A DNA stretch of 32,544 nucleotides from Negativicutes bacterium. Its GTDB lineage: Bacteria; Bacillota; Negativicutes; SKW292. Position numbers and translations under genes: made by a program. The DNA is taken from positions 1 to 32,544 of the forward strand of contig JAOAFP010000007.1 of assembly GCA_026416215.1 (NCBI GenBank), read 5' to 3'. Positions 11,201-25,987 of the stretch are shown in pieces. Position 1 is the stretch's first letter; each line of letters opens with the position of its first letter. Below the pieces are notes generated by a model. That model was not told the DNA's origin. It saw only the letters and a program-made list of their open reading frames with translations, and ran no database searches.

Positions 11201-11352
11201 GTCCAGCCGACGGGACTGGGTAGCCGGGCAGGGGCGATGACCGGGAATGGCAAGGCTGGACGCAGCCGGCGGCAGGGCAGGATATTGGCAGCCGGTGTGG
11301 AATGAACCGGGCAGGGCCGTTCGGTAATTTTAAATTGCAACGGAGAATGACA

Positions 11353-13488
11353 ATGAATCCGCTTTTTGCCCTTGACATAGGCACCCGCAGCGTGGTGGGG
11401 ATAGTCGGACGGCTGGACGATCAGCAACAGATCGTCGTTCAGTCGCACTACCGGCTGGAGCACAGAAAACGAGCCATGCTCGACGGGCAGATCCACGATG
11501 TGCCGGAGGTGGCACGGGTGTTGGCGGCGGTGCGGAAAAAACTCAGTGAGGCCGGAGGTCCGCTGACCGAGGTGGCAGTGGCGGCGGCCGGGCGGGCGCT
11601 ACTGACCACCCGGGCTGATGCCGAGCTGCATTTTTCGCCGGCATCACCGCTCAGCCGGCAGGATGAGCACGCCATCGAACTGCTGGCGGTACAGGCCGCC
11701 CAGCGGCAACTGGCCCTGTCGTACGATGAGCGGGCGGCCGCCCAGTACTACTGTGTGGGCTACAGTGTGATCAGCTACCATCTCGATGATTATCCGCTGA
11801 AGAGCCTGGTCGGCCAGACCGGTCGGCACGGCCGGGCGGAAATAGTGGCAACTTTTCTGCCCAGGCAGGTGATCGACAGCCTGCAGGTGGCGGTAAACGA
11901 AGCCGGCATGGAAATTGCCTCGCTGACTCTCGAGCCGATTGCCGCGATCCATCTGCTGGTTCCCGATACCATGCGCCACCTCAACCTCGTGCTGGTGGAC
12001 GTGGGGGCGGGGACCTCGGACATAGCTGTCACCAGTGACGGGGCGATTGTCGCCTATGGGATGGTGCCGCATGCCGGTGACGAGATCACCGAGGAACTGT
12101 CCCAGCAGTACCTGCTGGATTTCAACGAGGCTGAGTGGCTTAAGATCGCTTACAGCCGGGCGGCAGAGGGAGCGGAGCTGACTGCCCGCAACGTACTGGG
12201 ACGGGAAATTTTGGTTGCCCGGTCGGCGGTGGCGGCCTGCGTAGACCGGGCGGTTGCCCGGCTGGCCGATGAAATCGGCCGGGAGATCATCCAGCTGAAC
12301 GGTAAGCTGCCACAGGCTGTGCTGTTAGTCGGCGGCGGGGCCATGACCCCCAATCTGGATAAGTTTCTGGCCGGGCGGCTGGGGTTGCCGACGGAGCGGA
12401 TTGCCGTCCGCCGTCCGGACACGGTGGGCGGGTTTCTTAACCTGCCGGAAGAACTGTCGGCGTCGGACGCGGTTACCCCGCTGGGGATCATCGCACTGGC
12501 CGGCCGGCAGCGCTACCAGTTTATAACGGTGACTGTCAACGGCGAACGGTACCGGCTGTTTAATCTGGGGCGGCTGACGGTGGCAGACGGGCTGCTGGCG
12601 GCCGGCAGCGATCTGCGACGGGTGTTCGGCCAGCCAGGCAAAGGACTGACGGTGACGATCAACGGGCAGACCCGGACTGTCCCCGGGACGCTGAACCAAC
12701 CGGGCGAAGTGAGGAAGAACGGCGAAGTGTGCGCCATGGAAACCGGTCTTGACGACGGTGACGTGTTGACTGTGGTCCACGGGGTGGACGGCAGTCCCCC
12801 GCAGCTGACGGTGGCCGATTTGCTGCCGGTCCATGCCGCGGTGGAAATTTCAGTCAACGGCAAGGAATACCGGCTGGACGGAATGGTTAGCATCAATGGC
12901 CGTCGTGCCCGGTATGACACGCCGGTGGGCGATCGCGACGTGATCGTAACTGAAAATTTTGGCCGCATCGGTGAAATTCTTCAGTATTTCACCATCGACC
13001 ACACGGCACCGTCCTGCGAATTTTTCGTCAACGGCGAACGCCGTCAGTATCAGGCCCGGACCGAAATCCGCCTTAACGGCCAGCTGTGTGGCCCCGATCA
13101 ACTGGTATCGCCCGGTGACCGGGTGGAGATCGAGTTTTCCGGGGCGCCGACGGTTGGGGAACTGGTTAATGAGGACTGTGGGGACGATCAGTACATCACT
13201 CTGACCTTCAACGGCCAGCGCTGCGATCTGGCGGTGGCCCGCAACCAGCTGCTGCTGGACGGACAGGAAGTCGAACCGCACACCAGAATTTATCCCCGGG
13301 CCGAGCTGGTGATCAACCGGCAACGACTTAGCCAGCCTATCGTCAGCGACGTGCTGCTGGCGGCCGGCTACCAGCCACCGCTGTCGGTGGGGCGCGGGAA
13401 AATTTTTATCACCGTTAACGGCCGGCCGGCAGAGTTTATCACTCCGGTGGCGGCCGGTGACGAAATTACGATCGGGGTGACTGAATAG
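11353..13488 (+). CDS. Actin-fold (ASKHA; FtsA/PilM/EutJ-like) ATPase fused to a C-terminal array of 5-6 ThiS/MoaD-like beta-grasp modules. Function unknown.
   Basis: ASKHA motifs are FALDIGTRSVVG (phosphate 1), LVLVDVGAGTSDIAV (phosphate 2) and VLLVGGGAMTPNL (adenosine). The C-terminal roughly 320 aa repeats the pattern h-x-h-x-h-N-G ... N-G ... G-D-x-h-x-h. I prefer ATG 11353 (GGAGA 7 nt upstream; MNPLFALDIGT) over the track start 11302. Confidence 0.75.
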   Translation: MNPLFALDIGTRSVVGIVGRLDDQQQIVVQSHYRLEHRKRAMLDGQIHDVPEVARVLAAVRKKLSEAGGPLTEVAVAAAGRALLTTRADAELHFSPASPLSRQDEHAIELLAVQAAQRQLALSYDERAAAQYYCVGYSVISYHLDDYPLKSLVGQTGRHGRAEIVATFLPRQVIDSLQVAVNEAGMEIASLTLEPIAAIHLLVPDTMRHLNLVLVDVGAGTSDIAVTSDGAIVAYGMVPHAGDEITEELSQQYLLDFNEAEWLKIAYSRAAEGAELTARNVLGREILVARSAVAACVDRAVARLADEIGREIIQLNGKLPQAVLLVGGGAMTPNLDKFLAGRLGLPTERIAVRRPDTVGGFLNLPEELSASDAVTPLGIIALAGRQRYQFITVTVNGERYRLFNLGRLTVADGLLAAGSDLRRVFGQPGKGLTVTINGQTRTVPGTLNQPGEVRKNGEVCAMETGLDDGDVLTVVHGVDGSPPQLTVADLLPVHAAVEISVNGKEYRLDGMVSINGRRARYDTPVGDRDVIVTENFGRIGEILQYFTIDHTAPSCEFFVNGERRQYQARTEIRLNGQLCGPDQLVSPGDRVEIEFSGAPTVGELVNEDCGDDQYITLTFNGQRCDLAVARNQLLLDGQEVEPHTRIYPRAELVINRQRLSQPIVSDVLLAAGYQPPLSVGRGKIFITVNGRPAEFITPVAAGDEITIGVTE
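12523..13485 (+). repeat. Protein-level tandem array of about 60-aa beta-grasp-like modules inside the ASKHA gene
   Basis: In-frame seeds are ITVTVNG (12523), LTVTING (12646), VEISVNG (12841), CEFFVNG (13015), ITLTFNG (13195) and IFITVNG (13402). Most are followed by a second NG/DG and a GD-x-hydrophobic strand: DDGDVLTVV, GDRDVIV, PGDRVEIEF, AGDEITIGV. The DNA itself is not a near-identical repeat. Confidence 0.7.
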
Positions 13489-14430
13489 ATGACAAAGACG
13501 GGCCGTCGCGGTTATGACGAGCTGATAACTGCCGGCGACTGGCGGCGAATGCTGCAGGGAGCTTATCTGGCCTTTGTCAGGGAATACCACGCCATTGACC
13601 GGCTGAACTGCCGGGATGGGGTTAAAGGCGACACCGGAACCAACTTGCTGCTGACGGTGATGGCTGCACACCGGACGGCCCAGGCGACTGGTCAGGACGA
13701 CGGGCTGGGCGTGGTCTGCCGGCGGGCGGCCGACAGTGCCAGGCTGGCCGCCCGTGGTGCGGCGGGGAAGGTACTGGCCACTATGATGGACGGTCTGGCT
13801 GCCGGTCTGGCCGGTGAGGATAAGGCCACGGCGGCCAAAATGAGCCGGGCCCTGCAGCGGGCCATTCTGGCTGCCTACCGGGCTTCGGCCCGACCGGACG
13901 AAGGGGCGATGGTGGTGATCAGCCGGGCGATGGCCAGAGGGGCCCGGGCGGCCTTGTCCCGGCACTGGTCACTGGCCGAAGTGCTGGCTGCGGCGATTGA
14001 AGTGGGTGAGGAGGAAATTGGCCGCTGGGCAGATGCCGGCCGGACCGGGGGCTGGCAGGATCCGGGCGCCAGGGGGTTACTCCTGTTTCTGCGCGGCTGC
14101 CGGGAAGGATTGCTGGGGGCCAGTGACAGTCCCGAGGCCGATTTCGACCTCTGCCTGGAGCCGGTGGACGAACGGGGACAACCACTGACCAGCGGGGAAA
14201 TACTGCCGTACCGCCTGCGCCTGACCGTGAACGGCGCCCGTCTGCCGGCGGCAGCTGTAACCCGACAGTTGCTGGGGCTGGGGCGGGAGGTGATGGTTAA
14301 CCGCAACGGCGACCGGCTGACCGTCGGATTGGACACCGCCGCACCGGGCAGGGTGATCGACTGTGCCCTGTCGTGGGGGATAATCGGTGAGGTAAAAATT
14401 GTCAGCCGGGCAGATGCCGGGGATGGCTGA
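13489..14430 (+). CDS. Dak2/DhaL-like (FakA/YloV N-domain-like) protein with a C-terminal extension of about 75 aa carrying the same TVNG module motif
   Basis: ATG 13489 abuts the upstream TAG (13486-13488). Motifs IDRLNCRDGVKGDTGTNLL, ARGAAGKVL, ARPDEGAMVVISR and DPGARGLLLF align by eye with the Dak2 signatures LNVFPVPDGDTGTNM, GARGNSGVIL, PVEGTILTV and DSGGKGL. The C-terminus is YRLRLTVNGARL...VNRNGDRLTV. Confidence 0.65.
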   Translation: MTKTGRRGYDELITAGDWRRMLQGAYLAFVREYHAIDRLNCRDGVKGDTGTNLLLTVMAAHRTAQATGQDDGLGVVCRRAADSARLAARGAAGKVLATMMDGLAAGLAGEDKATAAKMSRALQRAILAAYRASARPDEGAMVVISRAMARGARAALSRHWSLAEVLAAAIEVGEEEIGRWADAGRTGGWQDPGARGLLLFLRGCREGLLGASDSPEADFDLCLEPVDERGQPLTSGEILPYRLRLTVNGARLPAAAVTRQLLGLGREVMVNRNGDRLTVGLDTAAPGRVIDCALSWGIIGEVKIVSRADAGDG

Positions 14431-14507
14431 CGGCAGCATCCGCAGCCGTAGCGGCCGGCCGTCGGCCGGCGTCTGCTGGTAGCGAAATTACGGAGGTGGG
14501 GTGGCTG

Positions 14508-16040
14508 GTGACGACGTTATACCTTGACGGGCACAGCCTGACGGTTGAAGATGTCGAGGCGGTGGCCCGGCGCTGGCGGCCGGTGTCGATCAGTCAGCTG
14601 GGTGTTGAGCAGCTTCGGCGCAGCCGGGCGGTAGTTGACCGGGTGCTGGCGGACGAGGTTCCCATGTACGGCATTTCGACCGGATTTGGCGAACTGAGTT
14701 CGGTGTACATTGTGGCGGATAAGCGGGCACTACTCCAGTACAACCTGATCGTCAGCCACGCAGCGGGAACAGGCGGGCTGCTGCCGGTTGACACTGCCCG
14801 GGCGGTAATGCTGCTCAGGCTGAACTCGTTGTGTAAGGGGTTTTCCGGGGTCAGACCGGAAACGGCCGGATTTATCGCCGAAATGCTTAACCGCCGGGTG
14901 ACTCCGGCCATTCCCTGCAAGGGATCGGTGGGAGCCAGCGGCGATCTGGCGCCGCTGGCCCACATGGCACTGGCGATGATCGGCGAGGGCGAGGTGTTTT
15001 ACAATGACCGGCTCTGGCCGGCCCGGCAGGCCCTGGCCGAAGTGGGGCTAATCCCGCTGGAGCTGGCCGGCAAAGAGGGGCTGGCCCTGATCAACGGCAC
15101 ATCGGTAATGTCGGCCTACGGCAACCTGGCCTGTTATGATGCCGGGCAGCTGCTGAAGCTGGCGGACATCGCCGGTGCCATGTCGCTGGAAGCCCTGAAG
15201 GGCACCCGGCGGGCCTTCGACCCGCGGGTGGCGGCTGTACGTCCCCACCCCGGGCAGGCAGCCACCGCCGACAATATCCTGCGGCTGACCGGGGACAGCG
15301 AGATTATTGCCTCGCATGCCAACTGCCGACGGGTGCAGGATGCTTATTCGCTGCGCTGCATATCCCAGGTCCACGGGGCATCGAAGGATGCCTGGCGGCG
15401 GGTGCGGGAGGTGCTGGACACCGAGAACAATTCGGTGACCGACAATCCGCTGATTATGCCGGACAGCGGCGAAATAATATCCGGTGGTAATTTCCATGGT
15501 CAGCCGGTGGCTTTGGTTATGGATTATGCCAAGGTGGCAACGGCTGAAATCGGCAATATTGCCGAGCGGCGAATCGCCCGGCTGGTCGACCCGGCCCTCA
15601 GCGGGCTGCCACCATTTCTGACTGCCAACGCCGGACTGCACTCGGGGATGATGATCATGCAGTACACAGCGGCCGCTCTGGTATCGGAAAACAAAGTGCT
15701 CTGCCATCCGGCCAGCTGTGATTCCATCCCCACCTCGGCCAACCAGGAGGATCACGTCAGCATGGGTACGATAGCCGCCCGCCAGCTTGGGGAAATACTG
15801 GAAAATGTCCGCAGTGTGGTGGCTATCGAATTGTTGTGTGCCGCCCAGGCGCTGGACTTCATGAAGCCGCTGCGGCCTGGGGTGGGGGTGGCGGCGGCCC
15901 GGACAGCCATTCGTGAGCTGGTCCCCCACTGGCAAGTCGACCGAATTGCCGCAGCTGACATGGAGGCTGTCCGGCGGATGGTGGCCGATGGCAGTCTGCT
16001 GGCCAGGGTGGAGGGAGCGGTTGGCAGTCTAGCGGTCTGA
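14508..16040 (+). CDS. hutH: Histidine ammonia-lyase (MIO-dependent)
   Basis: MIO-forming triad in GSVGASGDLAPLAHMAL, YGISTGFG, and the HAL-type Ser-His selectivity pair in LIVSHAAGTG. Also NSVTDNP and QEDHVSMG. I prefer GTG 14508 (GGAGG 12 nt upstream; MTTLYLDGHSLT) over 14496. Confidence 0.9.
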   Translation: MTTLYLDGHSLTVEDVEAVARRWRPVSISQLGVEQLRRSRAVVDRVLADEVPMYGISTGFGELSSVYIVADKRALLQYNLIVSHAAGTGGLLPVDTARAVMLLRLNSLCKGFSGVRPETAGFIAEMLNRRVTPAIPCKGSVGASGDLAPLAHMALAMIGEGEVFYNDRLWPARQALAEVGLIPLELAGKEGLALINGTSVMSAYGNLACYDAGQLLKLADIAGAMSLEALKGTRRAFDPRVAAVRPHPGQAATADNILRLTGDSEIIASHANCRRVQDAYSLRCISQVHGASKDAWRRVREVLDTENNSVTDNPLIMPDSGEIISGGNFHGQPVALVMDYAKVATAEIGNIAERRIARLVDPALSGLPPFLTANAGLHSGMMIMQYTAAALVSENKVLCHPASCDSIPTSANQEDHVSMGTIAARQLGEILENVRSVVAIELLCAAQALDFMKPLRPGVGVAAARTAIRELVPHWQVDRIAAADMEAVRRMVADGSLLARVEGAVGSLAV

Positions 16041-16142: not shown

Positions 16143-17711
16143 TCACTGGCGGCTAAAAACCGCCGGCTGAGCCGGGGTGGAGAAAGCGTCGACCGTCAGC
16201 TGGCTGTACCGGCCGCCTACCGGCCGGCCGAACGACACCGTTCCCGACAGATCATCGATTAGATAAGGCAGGTCGAGGTGGTACCGGTCACCACCAATCG
16301 GCTGCAGCGGGTAGCGAAGGTTGACGTAGCCGAGCTGGGCGTACAGCCGCCCCTGTTCGGCAGTGACGACAATCGTTCCGTACAGAGGATGGCGGTAGCG
16401 GCCGACAAACGGCGAAGGGTCGGCAGGATCGGGAAAGGCGGCCGGCGGCTGGTCGGACAACCTGGCGGCCCGCCAGGCGGCCAGGCGGTCAGCAGCCAAC
16501 GGCGGCAGCGGCGGCTGGGAGATTGCCGCCAGGAAATCGATTGCCAGATCACGCACCACCAGCGGCCGGCTGAGGTTGGCGACGATAATCACCCCGGTGT
16601 GCAGATCGGGGGCGAAGGCCATGACCGACTGGCAGCCGCCGGTGCGGTCGTATTGATAAAAGATATCCTGGCCGTTGATTACGGTGTAAAGCCAGCCTGG
16701 ACACCCCCAGGTTCCGGGATCATCGGCAGTTACCGCCACCGGTCTGCGGGTCTCGCGGAGGCTGGCCGGGCTTATCACCTGGCGGTGGGCAAACATTCCG
16801 TCGTTAAGCTGCATGATCAGGAAATTGCCGAGGTTCCGGACGGTGGAATTGACGGCCAGCCCGGCTCCGTATTCATACAGTGCGCCGAGATAAGGCCAGT
16901 TGTCGGGCAATTGGCGCAACTGGCCGTTCTGCCACTGGTGCAGGCCGAACCGGTCGACGGCATCGATGAAATTGCTGCTGCCGGTGGTGGTGCGGAACAT
17001 TGACAGGTAGCGCAGCAGGTCGTCGCTGAGAATTTTCTCCCATGGCCGCTCACCGTGCCGCTCGAGCAGCTTGCCGAGAAGGGTATGGGTGGCAAGCTGA
17101 GGCTGGCAGATCGTACCGGGAGGGGTTAGCTGGCTGATGGCCGGTATGGCGAGCAAGATGTCCTGACGGGTTGCGCCGAACAGCGACTGACCCACGCCGG
17201 CGTCGGCTGGCAGGCCGGCGGCATTGGCCAGCAGCTGGCGGACGGTGACCGACTGCCGGTCGGCACTGTTATTCCACTGGAACGGAGGATAAACCTTGGC
17301 CAGCGGGCTGTCCCAGCTGAAATAACGGCGGTCAACAGCCAGGGCGGCAAGGCTTGCGGTCAGCGGCTGGGTCAGACGGCCGATCGGAAAAATAGTGTCA
17401 AGGTCGGGTGGCTGCCGGTCGTCGGCGGCCAGCTGGCCAAACCCCTGCCAGTAGACCAGTGAATCATTCTCGACTACCGCCACTACCAGCCCCGGCGCCT
17501 GAATGGCAGCCTGAGCCTTCTGGCAGTTGCCAGCCAGCTGCTGCCATAGCAGCTGGCGCTGCTGGTCGGCGGCGGAACTGTCCGAGGTCAGGACTTGCCT
17601 GAGCTGCTGGTTGACGCCGGCCAGGGGGTCGGCGGCAGCGGCTGAAGCCGGCAGCGACGGGGCAATAGCCAGGGTGACGACGGTGAACAGGGATAAAAGC
17701 CGGATTGCCAT
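16143..17711 (-). CDS. Secreted beta-lactamase / peptidase S12 family protein with a substituted active site (predicted pseudoenzyme). The C-terminal domain is lipocalin-like.
   Basis: Signal peptide MAIRLLSLFTVVTLAIAPSLPASAAAA. Family pattern PGLVVAVVENDSLVY...DLDTIFPIGRLTQPLTASL...VTVRQLLANAAGL. Where the family has S-x-x-K, this protein reads R-L-T-Q (codons at 17378-17367, minus strand). Confidence 0.7.
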   Translation of the reverse strand: MAIRLLSLFTVVTLAIAPSLPASAAAADPLAGVNQQLRQVLTSDSSAADQQRQLLWQQLAGNCQKAQAAIQAPGLVVAVVENDSLVYWQGFGQLAADDRQPPDLDTIFPIGRLTQPLTASLAALAVDRRYFSWDSPLAKVYPPFQWNNSADRQSVTVRQLLANAAGLPADAGVGQSLFGATRQDILLAIPAISQLTPPGTICQPQLATHTLLGKLLERHGERPWEKILSDDLLRYLSMFRTTTGSSNFIDAVDRFGLHQWQNGQLRQLPDNWPYLGALYEYGAGLAVNSTVRNLGNFLIMQLNDGMFAHRQVISPASLRETRRPVAVTADDPGTWGCPGWLYTVINGQDIFYQYDRTGGCQSVMAFAPDLHTGVIIVANLSRPLVVRDLAIDFLAAISQPPLPPLAADRLAAWRAARLSDQPPAAFPDPADPSPFVGRYRHPLYGTIVVTAEQGRLYAQLGYVNLRYPLQPIGGDRYHLDLPYLIDDLSGTVSFGRPVGGRYSQLTVDAFSTPAQPAVFSRQ

Positions 17712-17798
17712 GTGTACCTCTTAACAGATATTGTGCGCCGGGCGGTGCTGTCAACCGGGGTTTCGGCAAAGCCCGGCTATTATCCTGCCGGCGGTTTG

Positions 17799-19149: not shown

Positions 19150-19182
19150 CTGCCGGAAAACGCGATTAACCGGCAGGATTTT
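19150..19182 (+). terminator. Possible intrinsic terminator after the lysA-like gene
   Basis: CTGCCGG (19150-19156) pairs with CCGGCAG (19070+100 numbering: 19170-19176), followed by GATTTT. The 13-nt loop is large, so confidence is moderate only. Confidence 0.45.
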
Positions 19183-19360
19183 GCCGGCCGGTGGCGAAAT
19201 CAGGGTCAGCAGGACAGGAATCCGGCGGGCAGCAGTCCCGAAAATTCCATCTCAGTCCGGTGTTGATCCGGACGGGCCGGCGGCGCGCACCTACCGGCCT
19301 CGGCCGGCGGGAATGCGGTCGCGGTAAAAATTTTTTAAGGCGATCAAGGGAGGAAACGAA

Positions 19361-20398
19361 GTGGGCAAGCTTTACATTCGCACCGTCGCTCTGATTCTGG
19401 CGATCAGTCTGTCGGCAGGCTGTGCAACGGCCCTGGCGGCGGCCGGGCCGGCCGCGGAACTCACCATGGCCGGCAAGCTGTCCGCCCTGGAAAAAGCCTA
19501 CTACGGCAGTGAACAGGCCGGAGCGTTGCTGGAACGGGTCGACCGGCTGGAAACCGATGTCTACGGAATGCGGGGGACAACATCGCTGGATGAGAGGCTG
19601 ACCAATCTCTACACTTACACGTTCGTGACCAGCGACAGTACGCCGCCGTCGTTTGTTCTCAAGCTCAACGCCGTTGAGTGGGGGGTGACCCACAATATCA
19701 GCGACGGGCCGCTGAAAAACCGGTTGACCAAGGTTTACCAGCTGGTGGTGGGCAACGACACCCAGATGTCGCTGAACGACATGCTGCGCAAGCTGTCCAC
19801 TGTCACTTTCGGTAACCAGTCGGCCACCTTCAGTGCCGTCACTGTTCCCAAGGATACGCTGATCAAGATTGAGTTCATCAACGACGCCAACAGCAAAACC
19901 TCACGGGTGGGGGACCCGCTCAACTTCAAGGTGGCGGAGGATGTGACGATCAACGGGGTGGTGGCCATCCCCAAGGGGGCGTACGGTCGCGCCAAGGTCA
20001 GCAAGGCTGAGCCGGCCGGCAGTTTTGGCCGCCAGGGACAGCTGGAAGCCAGTTTTCAGGATGTTACGGCTATGGATGACAGTTCAGTCGGGGTGTTTCT
20101 CGGCGAAAAGGCCAAACAGGAAAGCACCAACATGGCTTATGCGGCCGGGGCCAGCCTGGTCGGGCTGGCACTGCTCGGCCCGGTGGGGCTGATTGGCGGC
20201 ATTTTCGTCCAGGGCGACGAGGTGAGCATTAAATCCGGCCAGATGCTTTATCTTCAGACCACCAAGGCCACCACGGTGTACGGTGTGCAGCCGCCGGCCG
20301 CCGACGGCGGCAGCCCGCCCGGCAGCTCTCCCGACGGCGAGATTGCCGAGTACCATGTAAGCAGCGACGACAGCAACAACCAGTGGGTGAACTACTGA
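19361..20398 (+). CDS. Lipoprotein of unknown function with a C-terminal glycine-zipper hydrophobic segment
   Basis: GTG start after GGGAGG. Lipobox LSAGC at residues 17-21. Duplicated LE-x-x-YG...L-(E/D)-R motif near the N-terminus. Also contains AAGASLVGLALLGPVGLIGGIF and an acidic Pro/Ser/Gly tail. Confidence 0.6.
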   Translation: MGKLYIRTVALILAISLSAGCATALAAAGPAAELTMAGKLSALEKAYYGSEQAGALLERVDRLETDVYGMRGTTSLDERLTNLYTYTFVTSDSTPPSFVLKLNAVEWGVTHNISDGPLKNRLTKVYQLVVGNDTQMSLNDMLRKLSTVTFGNQSATFSAVTVPKDTLIKIEFINDANSKTSRVGDPLNFKVAEDVTINGVVAIPKGAYGRAKVSKAEPAGSFGRQGQLEASFQDVTAMDDSSVGVFLGEKAKQESTNMAYAAGASLVGLALLGPVGLIGGIFVQGDEVSIKSGQMLYLQTTKATTVYGVQPPAADGGSPPGSSPDGEIAEYHVSSDDSNNQWVNY

Positions 20399-20510: not shown

Positions 20511-21335
20511 GTGCTAAGAAACTGGCAGAAAATGCTCATTTACCTGTCGCTGGCCGGGGTGTGGCTGGTGACGGCCGGACCATTTCTCTGGCTGCTCAGC
20601 ACCTCGCTCAAGGACAAAAATGCCAACATTTTCGCCTATCCGCCGCAATTCTGGCCGCAGCCGCCGACACTGGAAAATTTTGCCGTGGTCACGCAGGCGG
20701 TGCCGATGGCCGGCTATTTCGTCAACAGCCTGATTGTGGCGGCAATAGCAGTGGCCGGACAGCTGCTGCTCTGCTCGATGGCGGCGTTTCCGCTGGCCCG
20801 GATGCGGTTTGTCGGGAGGAGGCTGATCTTCCTGCTGATCGTCAGCACGATGATGATCCCTGGGCAGGTGTGCATTTTGCCGCTGTTTATCATGGTGGCC
20901 GGCTGGGGACTGAAGAACAGCTATCTGGGTCTGGTTCTGCCGTCTCTGGTCGGGGCGTTCGGGATTTTTCTGCTGCGGCAGGCATTCCTGGCCGTGCCGC
21001 GATCGCTGGAGGAGGCGGCGGTGCTCGATGGGATGAACCCCTGGCAGATCTGGTGGCGGGTGCTGCTGCCGGCCGTCAGACCGGCACTGTCTACGCTGGC
21101 CATATTTTCGTTCGTGGCAGTCTGGGGTGATTTTATGTGGCCGCTGCTGATCACCGACGATCCGCACTATTTTACCCTGGCCCTGGGGGTGCAGCAGTTG
21201 TCGGGGACATTCACCCTTGACTGGCGGCTGGTGGCGGCCGGGGCGGTGATCAGCATCCTGCCGATTGTCGTGCTGTTCGCCTTCTGTCAGCGCTACTTCA
21301 TCAGCGGCACGGTCACCTCCGGGGTCAAAGAATGA
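20511..21335 (+). CDS. Carbohydrate-type ABC transporter permease (MalG / CUT1 family), with no partner genes nearby
   Basis: Six predicted TM segments. Intact EAA loop SLEEAAVLDGMNPWQIWWRVLLPAVRP. GTG start after GGGGAGGGGGAAAG. Confidence 0.8.
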   Translation: MLRNWQKMLIYLSLAGVWLVTAGPFLWLLSTSLKDKNANIFAYPPQFWPQPPTLENFAVVTQAVPMAGYFVNSLIVAAIAVAGQLLLCSMAAFPLARMRFVGRRLIFLLIVSTMMIPGQVCILPLFIMVAGWGLKNSYLGLVLPSLVGAFGIFLLRQAFLAVPRSLEEAAVLDGMNPWQIWWRVLLPAVRPALSTLAIFSFVAVWGDFMWPLLITDDPHYFTLALGVQQLSGTFTLDWRLVAAGAVISILPIVVLFAFCQRYFISGTVTSGVKE

Positions 21336-22438
21336 AACTGTGGCTCAACCGGTGGGAGCCGCTGGTGATCATCACCATCCTGCTGTCCCTGGTCGGTACG
21401 GTCAACATATTAAGCGCCAGTTTTGTCCGGGCTGAGCAAATCTACGGCGATGCCTGGTTTTTCCTCAAGCGCCACCTGGTCTACCTGTCGCTGGGGATGG
21501 CGGTGCTGGCGGCGGTGATCAGGGTGCCGCCGGCCACCTGGCGCAACCGGCGGATGCTGACCGTGGCAACGGTGTCGATTGGGCTGCTTTTGCTGCTGGT
21601 TTCCTTCACCGGTGTCGGTACGGTAATCAACGGCTCGCGCCGCTGGCTGATGGTCGGCGGGGTTTTGCAGTTCCAGCCTTCCGAACTGGCGAAAATTGTC
21701 GTAATTATGCTGGCCGCTCGCTATCTGTCCGACAACCGGCGGCAGGGCGGCAATGTTTCGCTTTGGTCGGGGCCGCTGGCAGTGGCAGCGGGCTACGCCG
21801 CCATGGTCCTGAAGCAGCCGGATATGAGCACGGCTACCCTGATTGTGGCTGTGCCGCTGCTCCTGTTTCTGATCGCCGGGGTCTCCCGGGTTGCCTGGCT
21901 GGCATTGCTGACCGGTGGGGTAGCCGGTCTAATCGGTCTGGCCGGTTTTGCCAGTTACCGGCTGGCCCGGCTCAAAGCCTGGTGGGATCCCTGGGCGGAT
22001 TTTGACAAGAGCGGCTACCAGAGTGCCCAGGCACTGATCGCCATTGGTGCCAGCGGACTGACTGGAGCGGGGCTGGGCAAGGGCTACAGCAAGTTTAACT
22101 ATCTGCCCGAGGCCCATACCGATTTTGCCTTTGCCGTGCTGTGCCAGGAGTGGGGAATTGCTGGGGCGGTGGTGGTGACGGTACTGTTTGGCCTGCTGGT
22201 GTTCTACGGCGTGCAGGTGGCGATTCGGGCCGACCGGCACGGCTGCTTTCTCAGTCTGGGAATGATATTGCTGATCGGCTGTCAGGCCGCCGTCAACATG
22301 GCCATGGTTACCGGTCTGCTGCCGGTGATGGGAATTCCGTTGCCGTTCATCAGCTACGGGGGAACGGCGCTGCTGGTTCAGTTTTTTGCCGTGGCGGTGG
22401 TGGTGGCGGTCGGCCGGACCAACGAGCGGACGGCCTGA
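21332..22438 (+). CDS. SEDS-family peptidoglycan glycosyltransferase (FtsW/SpoVE-type)
   Basis: 368 aa polytopic protein with ILSASFV, RRWLMVGGVLQFQPSELAKI, PDMSTA, PEAHTDFAFAV and LPFISYGGTALL motifs. Its ATG overlaps the permease TGA (ATGA). Confidence 0.85.
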   Translation: MKLWLNRWEPLVIITILLSLVGTVNILSASFVRAEQIYGDAWFFLKRHLVYLSLGMAVLAAVIRVPPATWRNRRMLTVATVSIGLLLLLVSFTGVGTVINGSRRWLMVGGVLQFQPSELAKIVVIMLAARYLSDNRRQGGNVSLWSGPLAVAAGYAAMVLKQPDMSTATLIVAVPLLLFLIAGVSRVAWLALLTGGVAGLIGLAGFASYRLARLKAWWDPWADFDKSGYQSAQALIAIGASGLTGAGLGKGYSKFNYLPEAHTDFAFAVLCQEWGIAGAVVVTVLFGLLVFYGVQVAIRADRHGCFLSLGMILLIGCQAAVNMAMVTGLLPVMGIPLPFISYGGTALLVQFFAVAVVVAVGRTNERTA

Positions 22439-22459
22439 CAGTGGGGAGGAGGGAAGAAA

Positions 22460-23953
22460 ATGTTGGATCAAATTGATCTTTCCCGCACAGTGGACAAGGA
22501 GGAATACCGCCGGGAAATCAGGCGACTGGGGCTGAGACTGGCTGGATTGCAGCGGCAGGCCCGGGATTTGAAGATTCCCCTGGCAATAGTGTTTGAGGGC
22601 TGGAATGCCGCCGGCAAGGGAACGCTGCTGAACAAGCTGTTGCAGTGGCTGGATCCGCGGGGGTTCACCGTTTACAACATGAAGGCACCGCAGGAGGATG
22701 AAGCCATGCGGCCGTTTTTGTGGCGGTTCTGGCTGAAAACTCCGGCCCGGGGCAGAATTTCGATTTTCGACCGCAGCTGGTACCGGCGGGTGGTGACCGA
22801 CCGGGTGGAGCGCAAGGTGGGTGAACGACAGTCACTCAAGGATTATCACGACATTAGTGTCTTTGAGCGGCAGCTGGCCGACGATGGCTGTGTGGTGCTG
22901 AAATTTTTCCTTCACATCAGCAAAAAGGAGCAGGGCAAACGATTCAGGGCCCTTGAGGCCAACAAGTCCACCGCCTGGCGGGTGACGGCCGAGGACTGGC
23001 GGCACCACAAGGAATATGATGACTACCTGCGCATGTACGATGCAATGCTGGTTCACACCAATCATCATTATGCGCCGTGGACGGTGATTGAGGCGCAGGA
23101 TACCCGTTATGCCACCCTGAAGGTGTTCCGTCACCTGATCGACGCCCTGGAGAAACAGATTGCCGCCGTCAGGCAGGCGGCCGGCCGCCCGGCCGAGAAA
23201 CCGCACATCGATATCAATGACGGCAGCTGGCGCTGGGAGTCATCTATGCTGGAACGGGCCGATCTGTCGCTGACCATGTCCCGCGACGAATACAGGCAGC
23301 AGCTGAAAAAATACCAGAAGCGTCTGCTCGAAATCGAACACGAAATATACGAGCGGCGCATCCCGGTGGTTATTGTCTACGAAGGCTGGGATGCAGCCGG
23401 CAAAGGGGGGAACATCAAACGGCTGACGGAAAATCTTGATCCCCGCGGTTATGAGGTCATTCCGGTTTCCGCCCCCAGCCGGGAGGAATTCAGTCATCAC
23501 TATCAGTGGCGGTTCTGGCGGGCGCTGCCCAAGGCCGGACACATTGCGATCTTCGACCGTTCGTGGTACGGCCGGGTGCTGGTTGAGCCGATCGAGGGTT
23601 TCTGTACAGCCGGGGAGTGGCAGCGGGCCTATCAGGAGATCAACGAAATGGAGGAAACTTGGGCCAATTTTGGCACGGTGATCTTCAAATTCTGGCTCCA
23701 CATCGACAAGGAGGAGCAGCTGAGGCGGTTCAGCGAACGGCAGGCCAACCCCGACAAGCAGTACAAAATCACCGAAGAGGACTGGCGCAACCGGGACAAA
23801 TGGGACCAGTACCAGCACCTGGTGGATGAAATGCTGATCCGGACCAGTACCCCGTACGCGCCCTGGACGGTGGTGGAGTCCAACTGCAAGCTTTACGCCC
23901 GGATCAAGGTGTTGCAGAACATCGTTGAACGGATGGACAGGGTGCTGGGGTAG
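22460..23953 (+). CDS. Two-domain polyphosphate kinase 2 (PPK2 class II, polyphosphate:AMP/ADP phosphotransferase type)
   Basis: Two PPK2 modules, each with a P-loop plus FDRSWY: VFEGWNAAGKGT...IFDRSWYRR and VYEGWDAAGKGG...IFDRSWYGR. Both also carry the W+V / APW lid motifs. RBS is GGGGAGGAGGG. Confidence 0.85.
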   Translation: MLDQIDLSRTVDKEEYRREIRRLGLRLAGLQRQARDLKIPLAIVFEGWNAAGKGTLLNKLLQWLDPRGFTVYNMKAPQEDEAMRPFLWRFWLKTPARGRISIFDRSWYRRVVTDRVERKVGERQSLKDYHDISVFERQLADDGCVVLKFFLHISKKEQGKRFRALEANKSTAWRVTAEDWRHHKEYDDYLRMYDAMLVHTNHHYAPWTVIEAQDTRYATLKVFRHLIDALEKQIAAVRQAAGRPAEKPHIDINDGSWRWESSMLERADLSLTMSRDEYRQQLKKYQKRLLEIEHEIYERRIPVVIVYEGWDAAGKGGNIKRLTENLDPRGYEVIPVSAPSREEFSHHYQWRFWRALPKAGHIAIFDRSWYGRVLVEPIEGFCTAGEWQRAYQEINEMEETWANFGTVIFKFWLHIDKEEQLRRFSERQANPDKQYKITEEDWRNRDKWDQYQHLVDEMLIRTSTPYAPWTVVESNCKLYARIKVLQNIVERMDRVLG

Positions 23954-23965
23954 GCCGGACGGCGG

Positions 23966-25987
23966 GTGAACAGCGTGGCAACGGTGCAAAAACGGATCGT
24001 TCTGGTCATGCTGGCGGTGCTGGCGATGCTGGCCGCGGTGGTGGTGCGGGTGGCCTGGCTGCAGGCCGCCCGCAGTGATGAGCTGGCGGCCAGGCTTAGG
24101 GGACAGGTCATGGACAACAAGGCGATCAATATGCCGCGGGGGCCGATTTACGACCGCAATGGCCGGGAAATGGCGATGAGCATCACGGTTAAATCCCTGT
24201 ACGCCGATCCGATGTTGATCCGGAAGGAGGGCAAGGTCGATCCGGCAGCGGTGGCCCGGGCCATTTCCCCCCTGCTCGGGCTGAGTGAGGATGAGATTGT
24301 CAGGAAACTGACAAGCGACAGCGGTTTTGTCTGGCTGAAACGGCTGCTGGACAAGCCGGCCAGCGACGAAATTGGCCGGCTGATCAGGGAAAACGGCTGG
24401 AACGGGGTTGCGTTTGTCGAGGAGAGCAAGCGGATTTATCCCAACGACGAGCTGGCAGCCCAGGTGATAGGGTTCGTCGGCACCGATGACAACGGACTGG
24501 CCGGGATCGAGCTGGAATTCGACAGCAAACTGCGCGGCGGCCGATACGACCAGTGGGTGGAAACCGATATGTCGGGGACGCCGATTTTCGATTCGATAAT
24601 TCAGTACACCAGCAAACGGCAGGGCAAAGCCCTGTACCTGACTGTTGACCAGGTGGTGCAGGCAATTGTGGAACAGGCGCTGGACCGGGGGGTGCAGGCC
24701 ACCAAGGCCGACGGGGCGGTGGCTATTGTTCTTGACCCCAGGACGGGTGAGGTGCTGGCCATGGCCAGCCGTCCGACCTTTAATCCCAATCGTTACGAGC
24801 AGGCCAGCCCGGTCAGCTGGCGCAACCGGGCGATCAGCATGGTGTACGAGCCGGGCTCGACCTTTAAGCCGGTGGTGGCGGCGGCGGCCATGCAGCTGGG
24901 ACTGGTCCATCCTGATGACCCGCTGTATGACGGCGGCTCGGTTAGTGTCGGCGAGCGGGTGATTAAAAACTGGGACGGCGGCGGACTGGGAGCGGTGACA
25001 TTCACCGACATAGTCAAGTATTCGGTCAATACCGGGTTTGTTCAGGTCGGGCTGAGGATGACGGCTGATCAGGAGCTGGATTTTGTCGAAAAATTCGGGT
25101 TTGGCCAGCCGACCAGGATTTCCCTGCCGGGAGAGGAAAGCGGGATTCTTTTCTCCCGGGCCGACATCACCCGCTCCGATCAGGCGTCGATGTCGATCGG
25201 CCAGGGTGTGGCTGTCACCCCCATTCAACTGATCCGGGCGATTGCTGCCATTGCCAACGGCGGCCTGCTGCTGGAACCACACATCGTGCGGGAAATTCGT
25301 GACGCCGAGGGCGGGGTGGAATTCGATGCATCAACCACCCCGGTCCGGCAGGTCATCCAGCCGGAGGTGGCAGCCGAACTGGCGAAAATGATGCAGCAGG
25401 TGATCAGCGACGGCAGTGGCAAGCGGGCGGCAGTGAAGGGCTATAACCTGGCTGGCAAGACCGGTACGGCTGAGCGGCTGCGCGAGGGAGGGGGAGGATA
25501 TTCCGGCTACATTGCCTCGTTTGTCGGGTTTGGCCCGGTCGAGGAGCCGCAGTTCGTCGTGCTGGTGGTGATCGACAATCCCAAGGGGCTGATCTACGGG
25601 GGAGAAATTGCCGCCCCGGTGTTCCGGGAAATAGTTTCACAGCTTCTCAGTTACCGCAATGTTCCCCGGACGGTGGACAGCGTGGTCGAGCAGGCGGCAC
25701 GGACCGCGGCCCCGCCATCCGGCAGCGATGGCAAGTCATCGCCGCCCCCTCCGGCCGGCAACGGCGCAACCGGCCGGCCGGTCATGCCGGACCTGCGGGG
25801 GCTCAACGTCCGGCAGGTCTGCACGATGCTGTCTGACCGGGGGATTGGGGTGAGAATAAACGGCAGCGGTCTGGCAGTCGGCCAGTCGGTGCCGCCGGGC
25901 CGCCCCCTGGATGAAAACGAAGTGGTGACGGTTGACTTTGCCTGGCCGGTTTCCCCGCTCGCCGGGCCAGGCAGGCAGGAACGATAA
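23966..25987 (+). CDS. Class B penicillin-binding protein (FtsI/SpoVD-type transpeptidase) with one C-terminal PASTA domain
   Basis: N-terminal TM anchor and the dimerisation-domain motif RGPIYDRNG. Catalytic motifs STFK, SVN and KTGTA are present. PASTA-like MPDLRGLNVRQVCTMLSDRGIGVRINGSGLAVGQSVPPG. Confidence 0.9.
   Translation: MNSVATVQKRIVLVMLAVLAMLAAVVVRVAWLQAARSDELAARLRGQVMDNKAINMPRGPIYDRNGREMAMSITVKSLYADPMLIRKEGKVDPAAVARAISPLLGLSEDEIVRKLTSDSGFVWLKRLLDKPASDEIGRLIRENGWNGVAFVEESKRIYPNDELAAQVIGFVGTDDNGLAGIELEFDSKLRGGRYDQWVETDMSGTPIFDSIIQYTSKRQGKALYLTVDQVVQAIVEQALDRGVQATKADGAVAIVLDPRTGEVLAMASRPTFNPNRYEQASPVSWRNRAISMVYEPGSTFKPVVAAAAMQLGLVHPDDPLYDGGSVSVGERVIKNWDGGGLGAVTFTDIVKYSVNTGFVQVGLRMTADQELDFVEKFGFGQPTRISLPGEESGILFSRADITRSDQASMSIGQGVAVTPIQLIRAIAAIANGGLLLEPHIVREIRDAEGGVEFDASTTPVRQVIQPEVAAELAKMMQQVISDGSGKRAAVKGYNLAGKTGTAERLREGGGGYSGYIASFVGFGPVEEPQFVVLVVIDNPKGLIYGGEIAAPVFREIVSQLLSYRNVPRTVDSVVEQAARTAAPPSGSDGKSSPPPPAGNGATGRPVMPDLRGLNVRQVCTMLSDRGIGVRINGSGLAVGQSVPPGRPLDENEVVTVDFAWPVSPLAGPGRQER

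Follow-up and report, generated by a model that had tools for sequence, protein, structure and literature searches.

Why should the gene for an actin-like ATPase end exactly where the gene for a truncated fatty acid kinase begins? The question is raised by a 32,544-bp contig of a metagenome-assembled genome (MAG) of a Negativicutes bacterium (the window, G+C content 62%). Here gene A (11353-13488, + strand, 711 amino acids) is followed directly by gene B (13489-14430, + strand, 313 amino acids); NCBI records of the same origin contain both proteins at 100% identity. A sequence-only reading of this DNA had described A as an FtsA/PilM/EutJ-like ATPase with a beta-grasp array and B as a stand-alone DhaL-like protein, and had considered a new two-component kinase or phosphorelay. 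What is new here is an apparent FakA-derived pseudoenzyme joined to an uncharacterized family of FtsA paralogs. The reading that we prefer, and hold tentatively, is that A and B form one transcription unit, probably driven by a sigma-H-type promoter, and consist of an FtsA-like ATPase conserved in Negativicutes and an accessory subunit derived from FakA. Its descriptive side is far better secured than what it says about function.

What kind of protein is B? Its first 205 residues (13489-14103, + strand) form a FakA_N-like helical-barrel Dak2 domain. The Dak2 assignment of the sequence-only reading is borne out by Pfam (PF02734, E-value 9.8e-17, 61.8 bits against a cut-off of 27), by matches to the N domains of FakA in the PDB (7ed6, 7w7h, 7rm7; E-values 2e-14 to 3e-10) and by the quoted motifs, all of which are present (GDTGTN, ARG..G..L, P.EG....V, D.G.+GL). 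The description as a stand-alone DhaL-like module has to be replaced. The rest of the protein (residues 206-313; 14104-14430, + strand) is a linker and a region resembling the FakA middle domain, as seen in BLAST alignments and in the YloV profile (TIGR03599), which B matches at profile positions 2-289 of 530 only, i.e., over the N and middle domains (107.3 bits against a cut-off of 396.1). The score against the FakA_VfrB profile (NF038248) is 51.4 bits, against a cut-off of 975. B aligns with residues 6-303 of Sporomusa malonica FakA at a BLAST E-value of 1e-48 and 38.6% identity, and its nearest relatives are FakAs of approximately 540 amino acids, which align to B residues 10-309 with 31-39% identity. 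B stops where the FakA_C domain would start; this domain is absent from B, and no remnant of it is found downstream. E. coli DhaL is similar in that the nucleotide-holding Dak2 barrel forms a small separate protein, but B is of the FakA type, has a middle domain and lacks the cap helix of DhaL (dihydroxyacetone kinase profile PRK14479, 17.2 bits against a cut-off of 492). B is therefore a truncated FakA, homologous over its full length to the N and middle domains of the kinase subunit in FakA/FakB systems (Staphylococcus aureus and Streptococcus suis FakA, Bacillus subtilis YloV; structures 7rm7 and 7w7h). FakA is the nearest known protein, yet B fails five of its six defining features.

The residues that B has lost are informative. 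In S. aureus FakA, two Mg ions are bound by Asn32, Asp38 and Asp40, the phosphates are contacted by Thr41 and Asn82 and the ribose by Asp185; in the middle domain, Cys240, His282 and His284 each contribute approximately 100-fold to activity, and FakB docks on FakA_C (PMC9136124). The middle domain dimerizes, and its Cys and His residues form a zinc finger (PMC10848957). In the alignment, B keeps the equivalents of Asn32 (N40), Asp40 (D48), Thr41 (T49, alpha-phosphate) and Asp185 (D191), and has lost those of Asp38 (K46), Asn82 (A91, beta-phosphate), Cys240 (R242), His282 (G280) and His284 (D282), so that four of the six Mg and nucleotide ligands remain. It reads KGDTGTN, and ARGAAG in place of ARGNSG. 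The sequence-only reading had placed the Mg-binding aspartates around D43 and D48; D48 is indeed kept, while D43 aligns with the proline of canonical NVFPVPDGDTGTN and the first Mg-Asp position is Lys46. Among the 68 positions conserved at 85% or more in a reference set of 126 canonical FakAs, B retains 32. The losses hit residues whose mutation inactivated FakA in published work: the D38A/D40A double mutant of S. aureus FakA is inactive (PMC9136124), as is D37A of S. suis FakA, of which D39A is still active (PMC10848957). What B retains are structural Gly and Pro residues, linker motifs and the GDTGTN, P-x-E-G and D-x-G-x-x-G motifs. From the alignment we infer that B is incapable of acyl-phosphate synthesis by the known FakA/FakB mechanism. 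It may still hold a nucleotide, given the helical-barrel fold and the four remaining ligands.

Could B nevertheless be an active kinase of a new type? It would then bind ATP or ADP with Mg and transfer phosphate, while A would take the place of DhaK or FakB in presenting the acceptor, or re-phosphorylate B-bound ADP as DhaM does for DhaL. The retained Asn40, Asp48, Thr49 and Asp191, the GDTGTN and DPGA motifs, the tight coupling of the two genes and the intact ATP motifs of A are in its favor, and the activity of S. suis D39A indicates some tolerance at the metal site. Yet the first Mg-Asp is a lysine, and mutation there inactivates the S. suis enzyme, as does the double mutation in S. aureus; the beta-phosphate Asn is an alanine; the Cys-His-His residues are Arg, Gly and Asp; the FakB-binding domain is gone; and A belongs to the FtsA/PilM scaffold type, not to the sugar-kinase/acetate-kinase type of the ASKHA (acetate and sugar kinase/Hsc70/actin) superfamily. 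Dak2 catalysis of the kind that the sequence-only reading had in mind is, on these grounds, decidedly unlikely, and the partners of A in other genomes, described next, speak against it as well. The second idea of that reading, a scaffold that offers a ligand to the Dak2 module, may still be right.

Is the pair peculiar to this contig? No gene adjoins A orthologs nearly as often as one of the FakA type (45 of 85 loci; the next gene cluster occurs at 13). In Negativicutes loci with enough flanking sequence, a FakA-type gene is found beside A in 43 of 60 cases, always divergent and just upstream. Conversely, when we start from metagenome loci that encode a short FakA-like protein, A lies divergently upstream in 52 of 69. 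The two genes thus co-occur in both directions, as the proposal of a linked pair had demanded. The pair turns up in three different genomic contexts, and the flanking genes are poorly conserved.

The partner comes in two forms. In six of the 43 loci (Sporomusaceae and relatives) it is a canonical FakA of approximately 540 amino acids with an intact PDGDTGTN, preceded by DegV, in other words a normal fatty acid kinase operon (order FTCD_C<-FakA<-DegV<- ->A). The statement that neither DhaK nor DegV accompanies the pair thus holds for the window but fails as a general rule. In the other 37 loci (Selenomonadaceae and relatives) DegV is missing and the partner is a protein of 412-440 amino acids in which the Dak2 and middle domains are followed by no more than the first half of FakA_C. 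Its Mg loop is replaced by G-AGTLPGTHILRTMGAAV; the equivalents of Asn32, Asp38, Asp40 and Thr41 are all lost, while the Cys-His-His cluster and many other residues are invariant. The sequence-only reading had asked for conservation of the Mg-binding aspartates in orthologs: both are lost in the 37 Selenomonadaceae-type partners, and the motif is intact in the six canonical FakAs. The pairing can therefore not owe its conservation to kinase chemistry, since the partners without either aspartate are by far the more numerous.

B and the Selenomonadaceae short form have lost complementary sets of residues. On the most far-reaching reading, taken up below, Negativicutes would have made a regulatory subunit out of FakA on at least one occasion, and perhaps, given these complementary losses, on two independent ones. 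In a neighbor-joining tree, the short form is nested inside the Negativicutes FakA clade, and B is a long branch on that clade (48 of 50 bootstraps). Its exact position is unstable (sister to the short form in 30 of 50, to the whole Negativicutes A-linked clade in 18 of 50), so we do not claim that the catalytic losses are independent. An N-plus-middle-domain architecture also exists outside the window: P0191, on a 1012-bp metagenome contig (L166, gene 16-960), is a complete stand-alone 314 amino acid protein with a Dak2 and a FakA-like middle domain. It has a canonical PDGDTGTN, lacks the Cys/His cluster and is 28% identical to B. Other short B-like matches, which we considered as examples of the same truncated architecture, are mostly fragments with canonical motifs. 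P0128, the third-best relative of B, was rejected as a paired homolog; it belongs to a canonical DegV-FakA operon beside ctsR-mcsB-clpC, and A is not nearby.

The window is the sole locus in which the partner lies downstream of A on the same strand. The stop codon of A (TAG, 13486-13488) is followed by the start codon of B (ATG, 13489-13491) with no base in between, exactly as the sequence-only reading had it, and a Shine-Dalgarno-like GGGGTG (13474-13479, + strand) sits 9 nt 5' of the B start. This layout is compatible with translational coupling, and the exact abutment suggests that the two genes are now an operon. In the literature searched, we found no paper describing such a pairing, in agreement with the claim that it has no characterized precedent, and none with FtsA fused to a beta-grasp array; two large surveys of beta-grasp proteins make no mention of an FtsA fusion. 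To our knowledge, no actin-fold partner of FakA is known.

What, then, is A? Three starts can be considered: 11302 (the longest open reading frame, ORF), 11347 (the NCBI record, 713 amino acids, beginning MTMNPLF) and 11353. We prefer the last, because a GGAG Shine-Dalgarno sequence (11342-11345, + strand) lies 7 nt before this ATG and because the orthologs start four residues before FALDIG. Residues 1-385 (11353-12507, + strand) form an ATPase domain with the FtsA-type actin fold. All three actin-fold motifs noted earlier are present in the translation: FALDIGTRSVVG (residues 5-16), LVLVDVGAGTSDIAV (residues 212-226) and VLLVGGGAMTPNL (residues 323-335). The phosphate-1 (DIGTRS), phosphate-2 (DxGAGTSD) and adenosine (GGG) motifs are intact, and the motif residues are invariant in 23 orthologs. 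Pfam matches FtsA (1.8e-12), PilM_2 (8.7e-12) and MreB_Mbl (1.2e-10), and the PDB sequence matches are to FtsA, PilM, EutJ and MreB. The profiles thus place the first 365 or so residues in the FtsA/PilM/MreB/EutJ branch of the actin fold, but every curated family cut-off is missed. We built an AlphaFold2 (AF2) model from the 23 orthologs (predicted local distance difference test, pLDDT, 83.5). With this model, Foldseek returns FtsA first (7q6f, 7q6d, 7q6g; E-values approximately 1e-27 to 2e-27), with target-normalized template modeling (TM) scores of 0.84-0.88 over approximately 400 columns that include the 1C (SHS2) insert; PilM comes second, followed by EutJ and MreB. The description of A as an FtsA/PilM/EutJ-like ATPase with a beta-grasp array is thus upheld by profile, AF2 and Foldseek. 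PilM, EutJ and DDR-type ASKHA ATPases belong to the same branch, with significant profile matches below the cut-offs and structural matches; unlike A, all of these families lack beta-grasp arrays.

The family of A is large. It comprises thousands of proteins of approximately 710 amino acids at 43-48% identity, and a genome scan finds it in at least 576 species genomes, mostly of Negativicutes (Sporomusa, Pelosinus, Selenomonas, Megamonas, Mitsuokella, Pectinatus, Anaerovibrio), and also in Bacilli (Brevibacillus, Aneurinibacillus, Tepidibacillus, Sporosarcina). In public records it goes by "cell division protein FtsA" or "rod shape-determining protein," and in some MAG annotations several ftsA copies are numbered per genome. 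Is A then simply FtsA or MreB, as annotated, and B an unrelated neighbor? Apart from the names, the best fold match is indeed FtsA, over the first 385 residues and with the nucleotide motifs intact. Membership tests contradict this reading: A scores 86 bits against 175.85 for TIGR01174 and 41.8 against 409 for PRK09472, the FtsA equivalogs (and 56.4 against 133 for the PilM profile TIGR01175). A beta-grasp array of approximately 325 residues stands where FtsA has its C-terminal amphipathic membrane-targeting helix, and the gene is neither beside ftsZ nor in the dcw cluster but between topA and B. The nearest known protein is FtsA, yet A fails three of its four defining features, and the numbering of several ftsA copies in some MAGs also speaks against the name. 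We give an ordinary FtsA or MreB next to no chance. A is a separate paralogous family and not FtsA proper, and the FtsA and rod-shape names now attached to it are probably wrong, judged by the FtsA equivalog cut-offs.

Members of the family differ at their ends. The Selenomonadaceae orthologs (L016-L080, e.g., L049:7824-10163, L037, L038, L057) have N-terminal tails of 30-130 amino acids rich in Lys, Arg, Thr and Ala, approximately 20 of which contain AT-hook-like motifs of the RGRPKK type. The same proteins have a Pro/Ala-rich C-terminal extension with a conserved end, ...L[TS]IxDFIRxD. Orthologs from Bacilli end in FWE or YWE. The window A has neither the basic N-terminal tail nor the C-terminal extension.

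The C-terminal part of A (12517-13485, + strand) is predicted to consist of approximately five beta-grasp modules of the ThiS/TGS/ubiquitin-like kind, one long and four shorter, with approximate bounds at residues 389-476, 485-536, 538-596, 600-660 and 663-711. We modeled residues 383-711 separately with AF2 (pLDDT 86). Foldseek matches the whole tail to the multi-ubiquitin-domain protein 9cd2 (E-value 1e-4), to ISG15 and to Wza repeats, and single modules to the TGS domain 2kmm, to ThiS (2k5p), 1ryj and SAMP1 (3po0), all with probabilities of 0.99-1.0, and also to MoaD. Pfam gives sub-threshold pieces of ThiS, TGS, S4 and Ub-Mut7C, and hidden Markov models of single modules cross-match weakly (M3-M5 at 1e-6, M3-M2 at 3e-5). 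These models and matches indicate that the array is real. Tandem beta-grasp and multi-ubiquitin-domain proteins (9cd2, 8u38; ISG15; Wza) are the best fold matches of the last 330 or so residues, but the likeness is one of fold only, with 8-10% identity and low TM scores over the whole array. PADLOC defense models give no credible match, so the resemblance to multi-ubiquitin-domain defense proteins is without support as a family relationship. The modules share the fold of ThiS/MoaD-type carriers, but A has no free C-terminal Gly-Gly; it ends in a beta-strand (...EITIGVTE), also without an FtsA-type amphipathic helix. No ThiF/MoeB-like gene is present in the window, and no E1, E2 or JAB genes are found near A.

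How might the two genes be expressed? Upstream of A there is a candidate sigma-H-type promoter (11277-11303, + strand), with a -35 box GCAGGATAT (11277-11285), an 11-nt spacer and a -10 box GTGGAAT (11297-11303), ending 50 nt before the ATG of A. Sigma-H promoters of B. subtilis have spacers of 11-12 nt, and B. subtilis ftsAZ itself also has a sigma-H-dependent promoter. The published consensus is RNAGGAWWW for the -35 and RNNGAATWW for the -10 box (PMC8510167). When both strands of the window are scanned with a strict pattern (RNAGGAWWW-N11-12-RNNGAAT), this is the sole match, where shuffled sequence gives a mean of 0.01 per window; a sigma-70 promoter scan finds nothing upstream of A. A relaxed pattern occurs upstream of A orthologs at 84 of 133 distinct loci, compared to none of 133 intragenic controls, and eight of 12 Bacilli loci (Brevibacillus and Tepidibacillus included) have sigma-H-like boxes before A in the form ACAGGATTC-N-CGAAT. 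In three Bacilli loci (L069, L082, L084) TTTGTCGAAA stands just 5' of the ribosome binding site of A, beside the sigma-H-like boxes and in two copies in L084; it resembles the Spo0A box, TGTCGAA. In the window, a G+C-rich hairpin followed by AATTTTAAAT (11306-11325, + strand) lies between the predicted -10 box and the ribosome binding site of A. It is terminator-like in a consensus scan and could be the topA terminator, a stabilizer of the 5' untranslated region or an attenuator.

The Selenomonadaceae-type loci offer a comparison. An element of approximately 50 bp (AAACAGGATTctattntataATTCGCGAAATAAtanaAATAACCTTTT) is common to 87 distinct intergenic regions between the FakA-like gene and A (L006-L165, e.g., L028, L049, L023), and its palindromic core TTCGCGAA is found in 77 of the 87, once per locus (shuffle maximum 14); the window lacks the element. 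The relaxed sigma-H pattern points toward A in 69 of the 87 regions, toward the FakA-like gene in 65 and both ways in 52, compared to one of 87 after shuffling. The element thus reads as two overlapping divergent sigma-H-type promoters that appear to serve both genes. We also considered a repressor operator or an RNA hairpin, but the arms are only partly complementary and the two promoters fit better; an extra regulator site at the palindrome is possible. Rfam, run over the whole window and five related loci, finds nothing at the A/B pair or in the conserved element (its only matches are 6S RNA and a tRNA elsewhere in L028). Judged by these promoter patterns, the A family, together with its FakA-derived partner in Negativicutes, looks like a member of the sigma-H regulon. 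If so, the genes would be expressed when cells pass into stationary phase or begin to sporulate and, in non-sporulators, maybe together with competence genes.

This last point touches on another reading, in which the pair would serve the uptake or handling of DNA, with A as an actin-like ATPase that either resembles PilM or associates with the nucleoid, and with B as an accessory. Sigma-H-family factors drive competence genes in non-sporulating Firmicutes, A directly follows dprA-topA, PilM is the second-best structural match, and the tails of the Selenomonadaceae orthologs are Lys/Arg-rich and AT-hook-like. But dprA-topA is beside A in the window only, other loci having quite different neighbors; FtsA fits better than PilM; and the window A lacks the basic tail. 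No pilN, pilO or other pil genes, no com genes and no eut or diol-dehydratase genes are found near A in the window. A role in competence or DNA handling seems to us very improbable.

A more serious contender is that B is a relic: a remnant of an ancestral fakA beside A, decaying toward a pseudogene, whose adjacency came from a local inversion and a deletion and involves no functional partnership. A good deal weighs on this side and thus against our preferred reading. B is a singleton. Among 1.84 billion cluster representatives, searched exhaustively, there is no relative above approximately 37-39% identity, and a word-index search returns B alone; nothing above approximately 39% is found among 15 billion proteins. 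It has kept fewer than half of the conserved FakA positions (the 32 of 68 given above), without the Mg, phosphate and Cys-His-His residues listed above and without the FakB-binding domain. Long spurious ORFs are frequent in a window of 62% G+C, which makes an open frame a poor indicator of function. B also diverges faster than A: in the comparison with B, the identities are 39.5% for B and 45.5% for A, and in that of the short form 58% and 64% for A, while canonical FakA is more conserved than A (73% against 60%). B thus evolves faster than A and canonical FakA more slowly, which fits relaxed constraint as well as new function. Many A orthologs have no such neighbor: among loci with enough flanking sequence, it is missing from 17 of the 60 in Negativicutes and from each of the 11 in Bacilli, which implies that A does not need the partner. 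In Sporomusaceae the adjacency lies inside a wider syntenic block (Tex, FTCD_C, hemL, hemB), from which FakA-DegV can drop out or be replaced by other genes, and one local inversion of A, with loss of DegV, could give the A->B->hutH order of the window by descent. The sigma-H assignment, which uses a consensus from B. subtilis and Bacillus thuringiensis, may not hold for Negativicutes.

Against decay stand four observations. First, B runs through 313 codons without a frameshift, homologous to FakA from end to end, and its codon usage and G+C content at third codon positions are those of the bona fide genes of the window. With its homology uninterrupted, B must still be a real gene or have been one until very recently. 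Second, the losses cluster at catalytic and metal positions, with structural Gly and Pro residues and linker motifs kept. Third, the C-terminal truncation is clean and falls at a domain boundary. Fourth, a comparably kinase-dead derivative of FakA is maintained beside A in Selenomonadaceae, with a shared promoter region. We therefore regard the relic as somewhat unlikely and continue to favor, tentatively, an accessory subunit.

How might such a module work? On our preferred reading, A and B would be co-expressed from the promoter at 11277-11303 once the cell enters stationary phase or starts to sporulate. The working part would be A with its invariant ATP motifs: depending on nucleotide, it would polymerize or serve as a scaffold, and its beta-grasp array would provide surfaces that bind proteins. 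B, and with it the short form of Selenomonadaceae, would be a former enzyme that is retained as a non-catalytic accessory subunit of A, either an adaptor or a sensor. There is a precedent in E. coli, where DhaL, besides its catalytic role, signals to DhaR through protein contacts. The ancestral position next to FakA and DegV would point to membrane-lipid supply or envelope remodeling as the process served. It is tempting to go further and hypothesize an unrecognized sigma-H-controlled cytoskeletal or envelope system of Firmicutes, in which A polymerizes or forms a scaffold at the membrane at the stationary-phase/sporulation transition and the FakA-derived pseudokinase couples it to the supply of fatty acids or acyl phosphate; taken as a whole, we consider this rather unlikely.

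Should the pair prove functional, no earlier case would be known in which a bacterial actin homolog has recruited a fatty acid kinase subunit as a non-catalytic partner, and the sigma-H regulon would gain a new member that is conserved from Brevibacillus to Selenomonas. If B is only a relic, the locus documents a stepwise decay of FakA, with three stages across Negativicutes.

Upstream of A in the window are the atp operon, a gene for a glycosyltransferase resembling monogalactosyldiacylglycerol synthase, dprA and topA; downstream of B are hutH, a beta-lactamase-family gene on the opposite strand, a lysA-like decarboxylase gene and cell-wall genes. No homologs of DegV, DhaK or FakA_C are found in the window, either by Pfam (22 of 25 long ORFs) or by a six-frame tblastn search of its whole length (best E-value 0.3), and Dak1, PTS-EIIA, DhaM and DhaR are not found among its ORFs. 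Where FakA-DegV is missing or set back in other genomes, a small divergent ORF without a Pfam match lies upstream of A, encoding 61 amino acids (L005:5611-5796, L170:5557-5742, L171:1223-1408) or 30 amino acids (L003:5775-5867). The hutH gene (14496-16040) follows B, and an FTCD_C gene stands beside FakA-DegV/A in Sporomusaceae (L001:2547-3188, L005:4842-5486, L169:2552-3193, L170:793-1440); both belong to histidine degradation and may be remnants of one ancestral neighborhood.

Two other intergenic sites in the window match the relaxed sigma-H pattern. One, GCAGGATAATAGCCGGGCTTTGCCGAAA (17761-17788, - strand), lies approximately 50 nt before a beta-lactamase/DUF3471 gene (16143-17711, - strand); the other, GCAGGATTTTGCCGGCCGGTGGCGAAA (19173-19199, + strand), lies approximately 160 nt before an ORF (19361-20398) that has no Pfam match and a lipoprotein-like LSAGC signal. 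Together with the promoter of A this makes three matches, compared to 0.22 expected, and none of 300 shuffled windows reaches three. Finally, in the region 21332-25987, a gene for a two-domain PPK2 polyphosphate kinase (22460-23953) is found between a gene of the FtsW/RodA/SpoVE family and one for a class B penicillin-binding protein with a PASTA domain.

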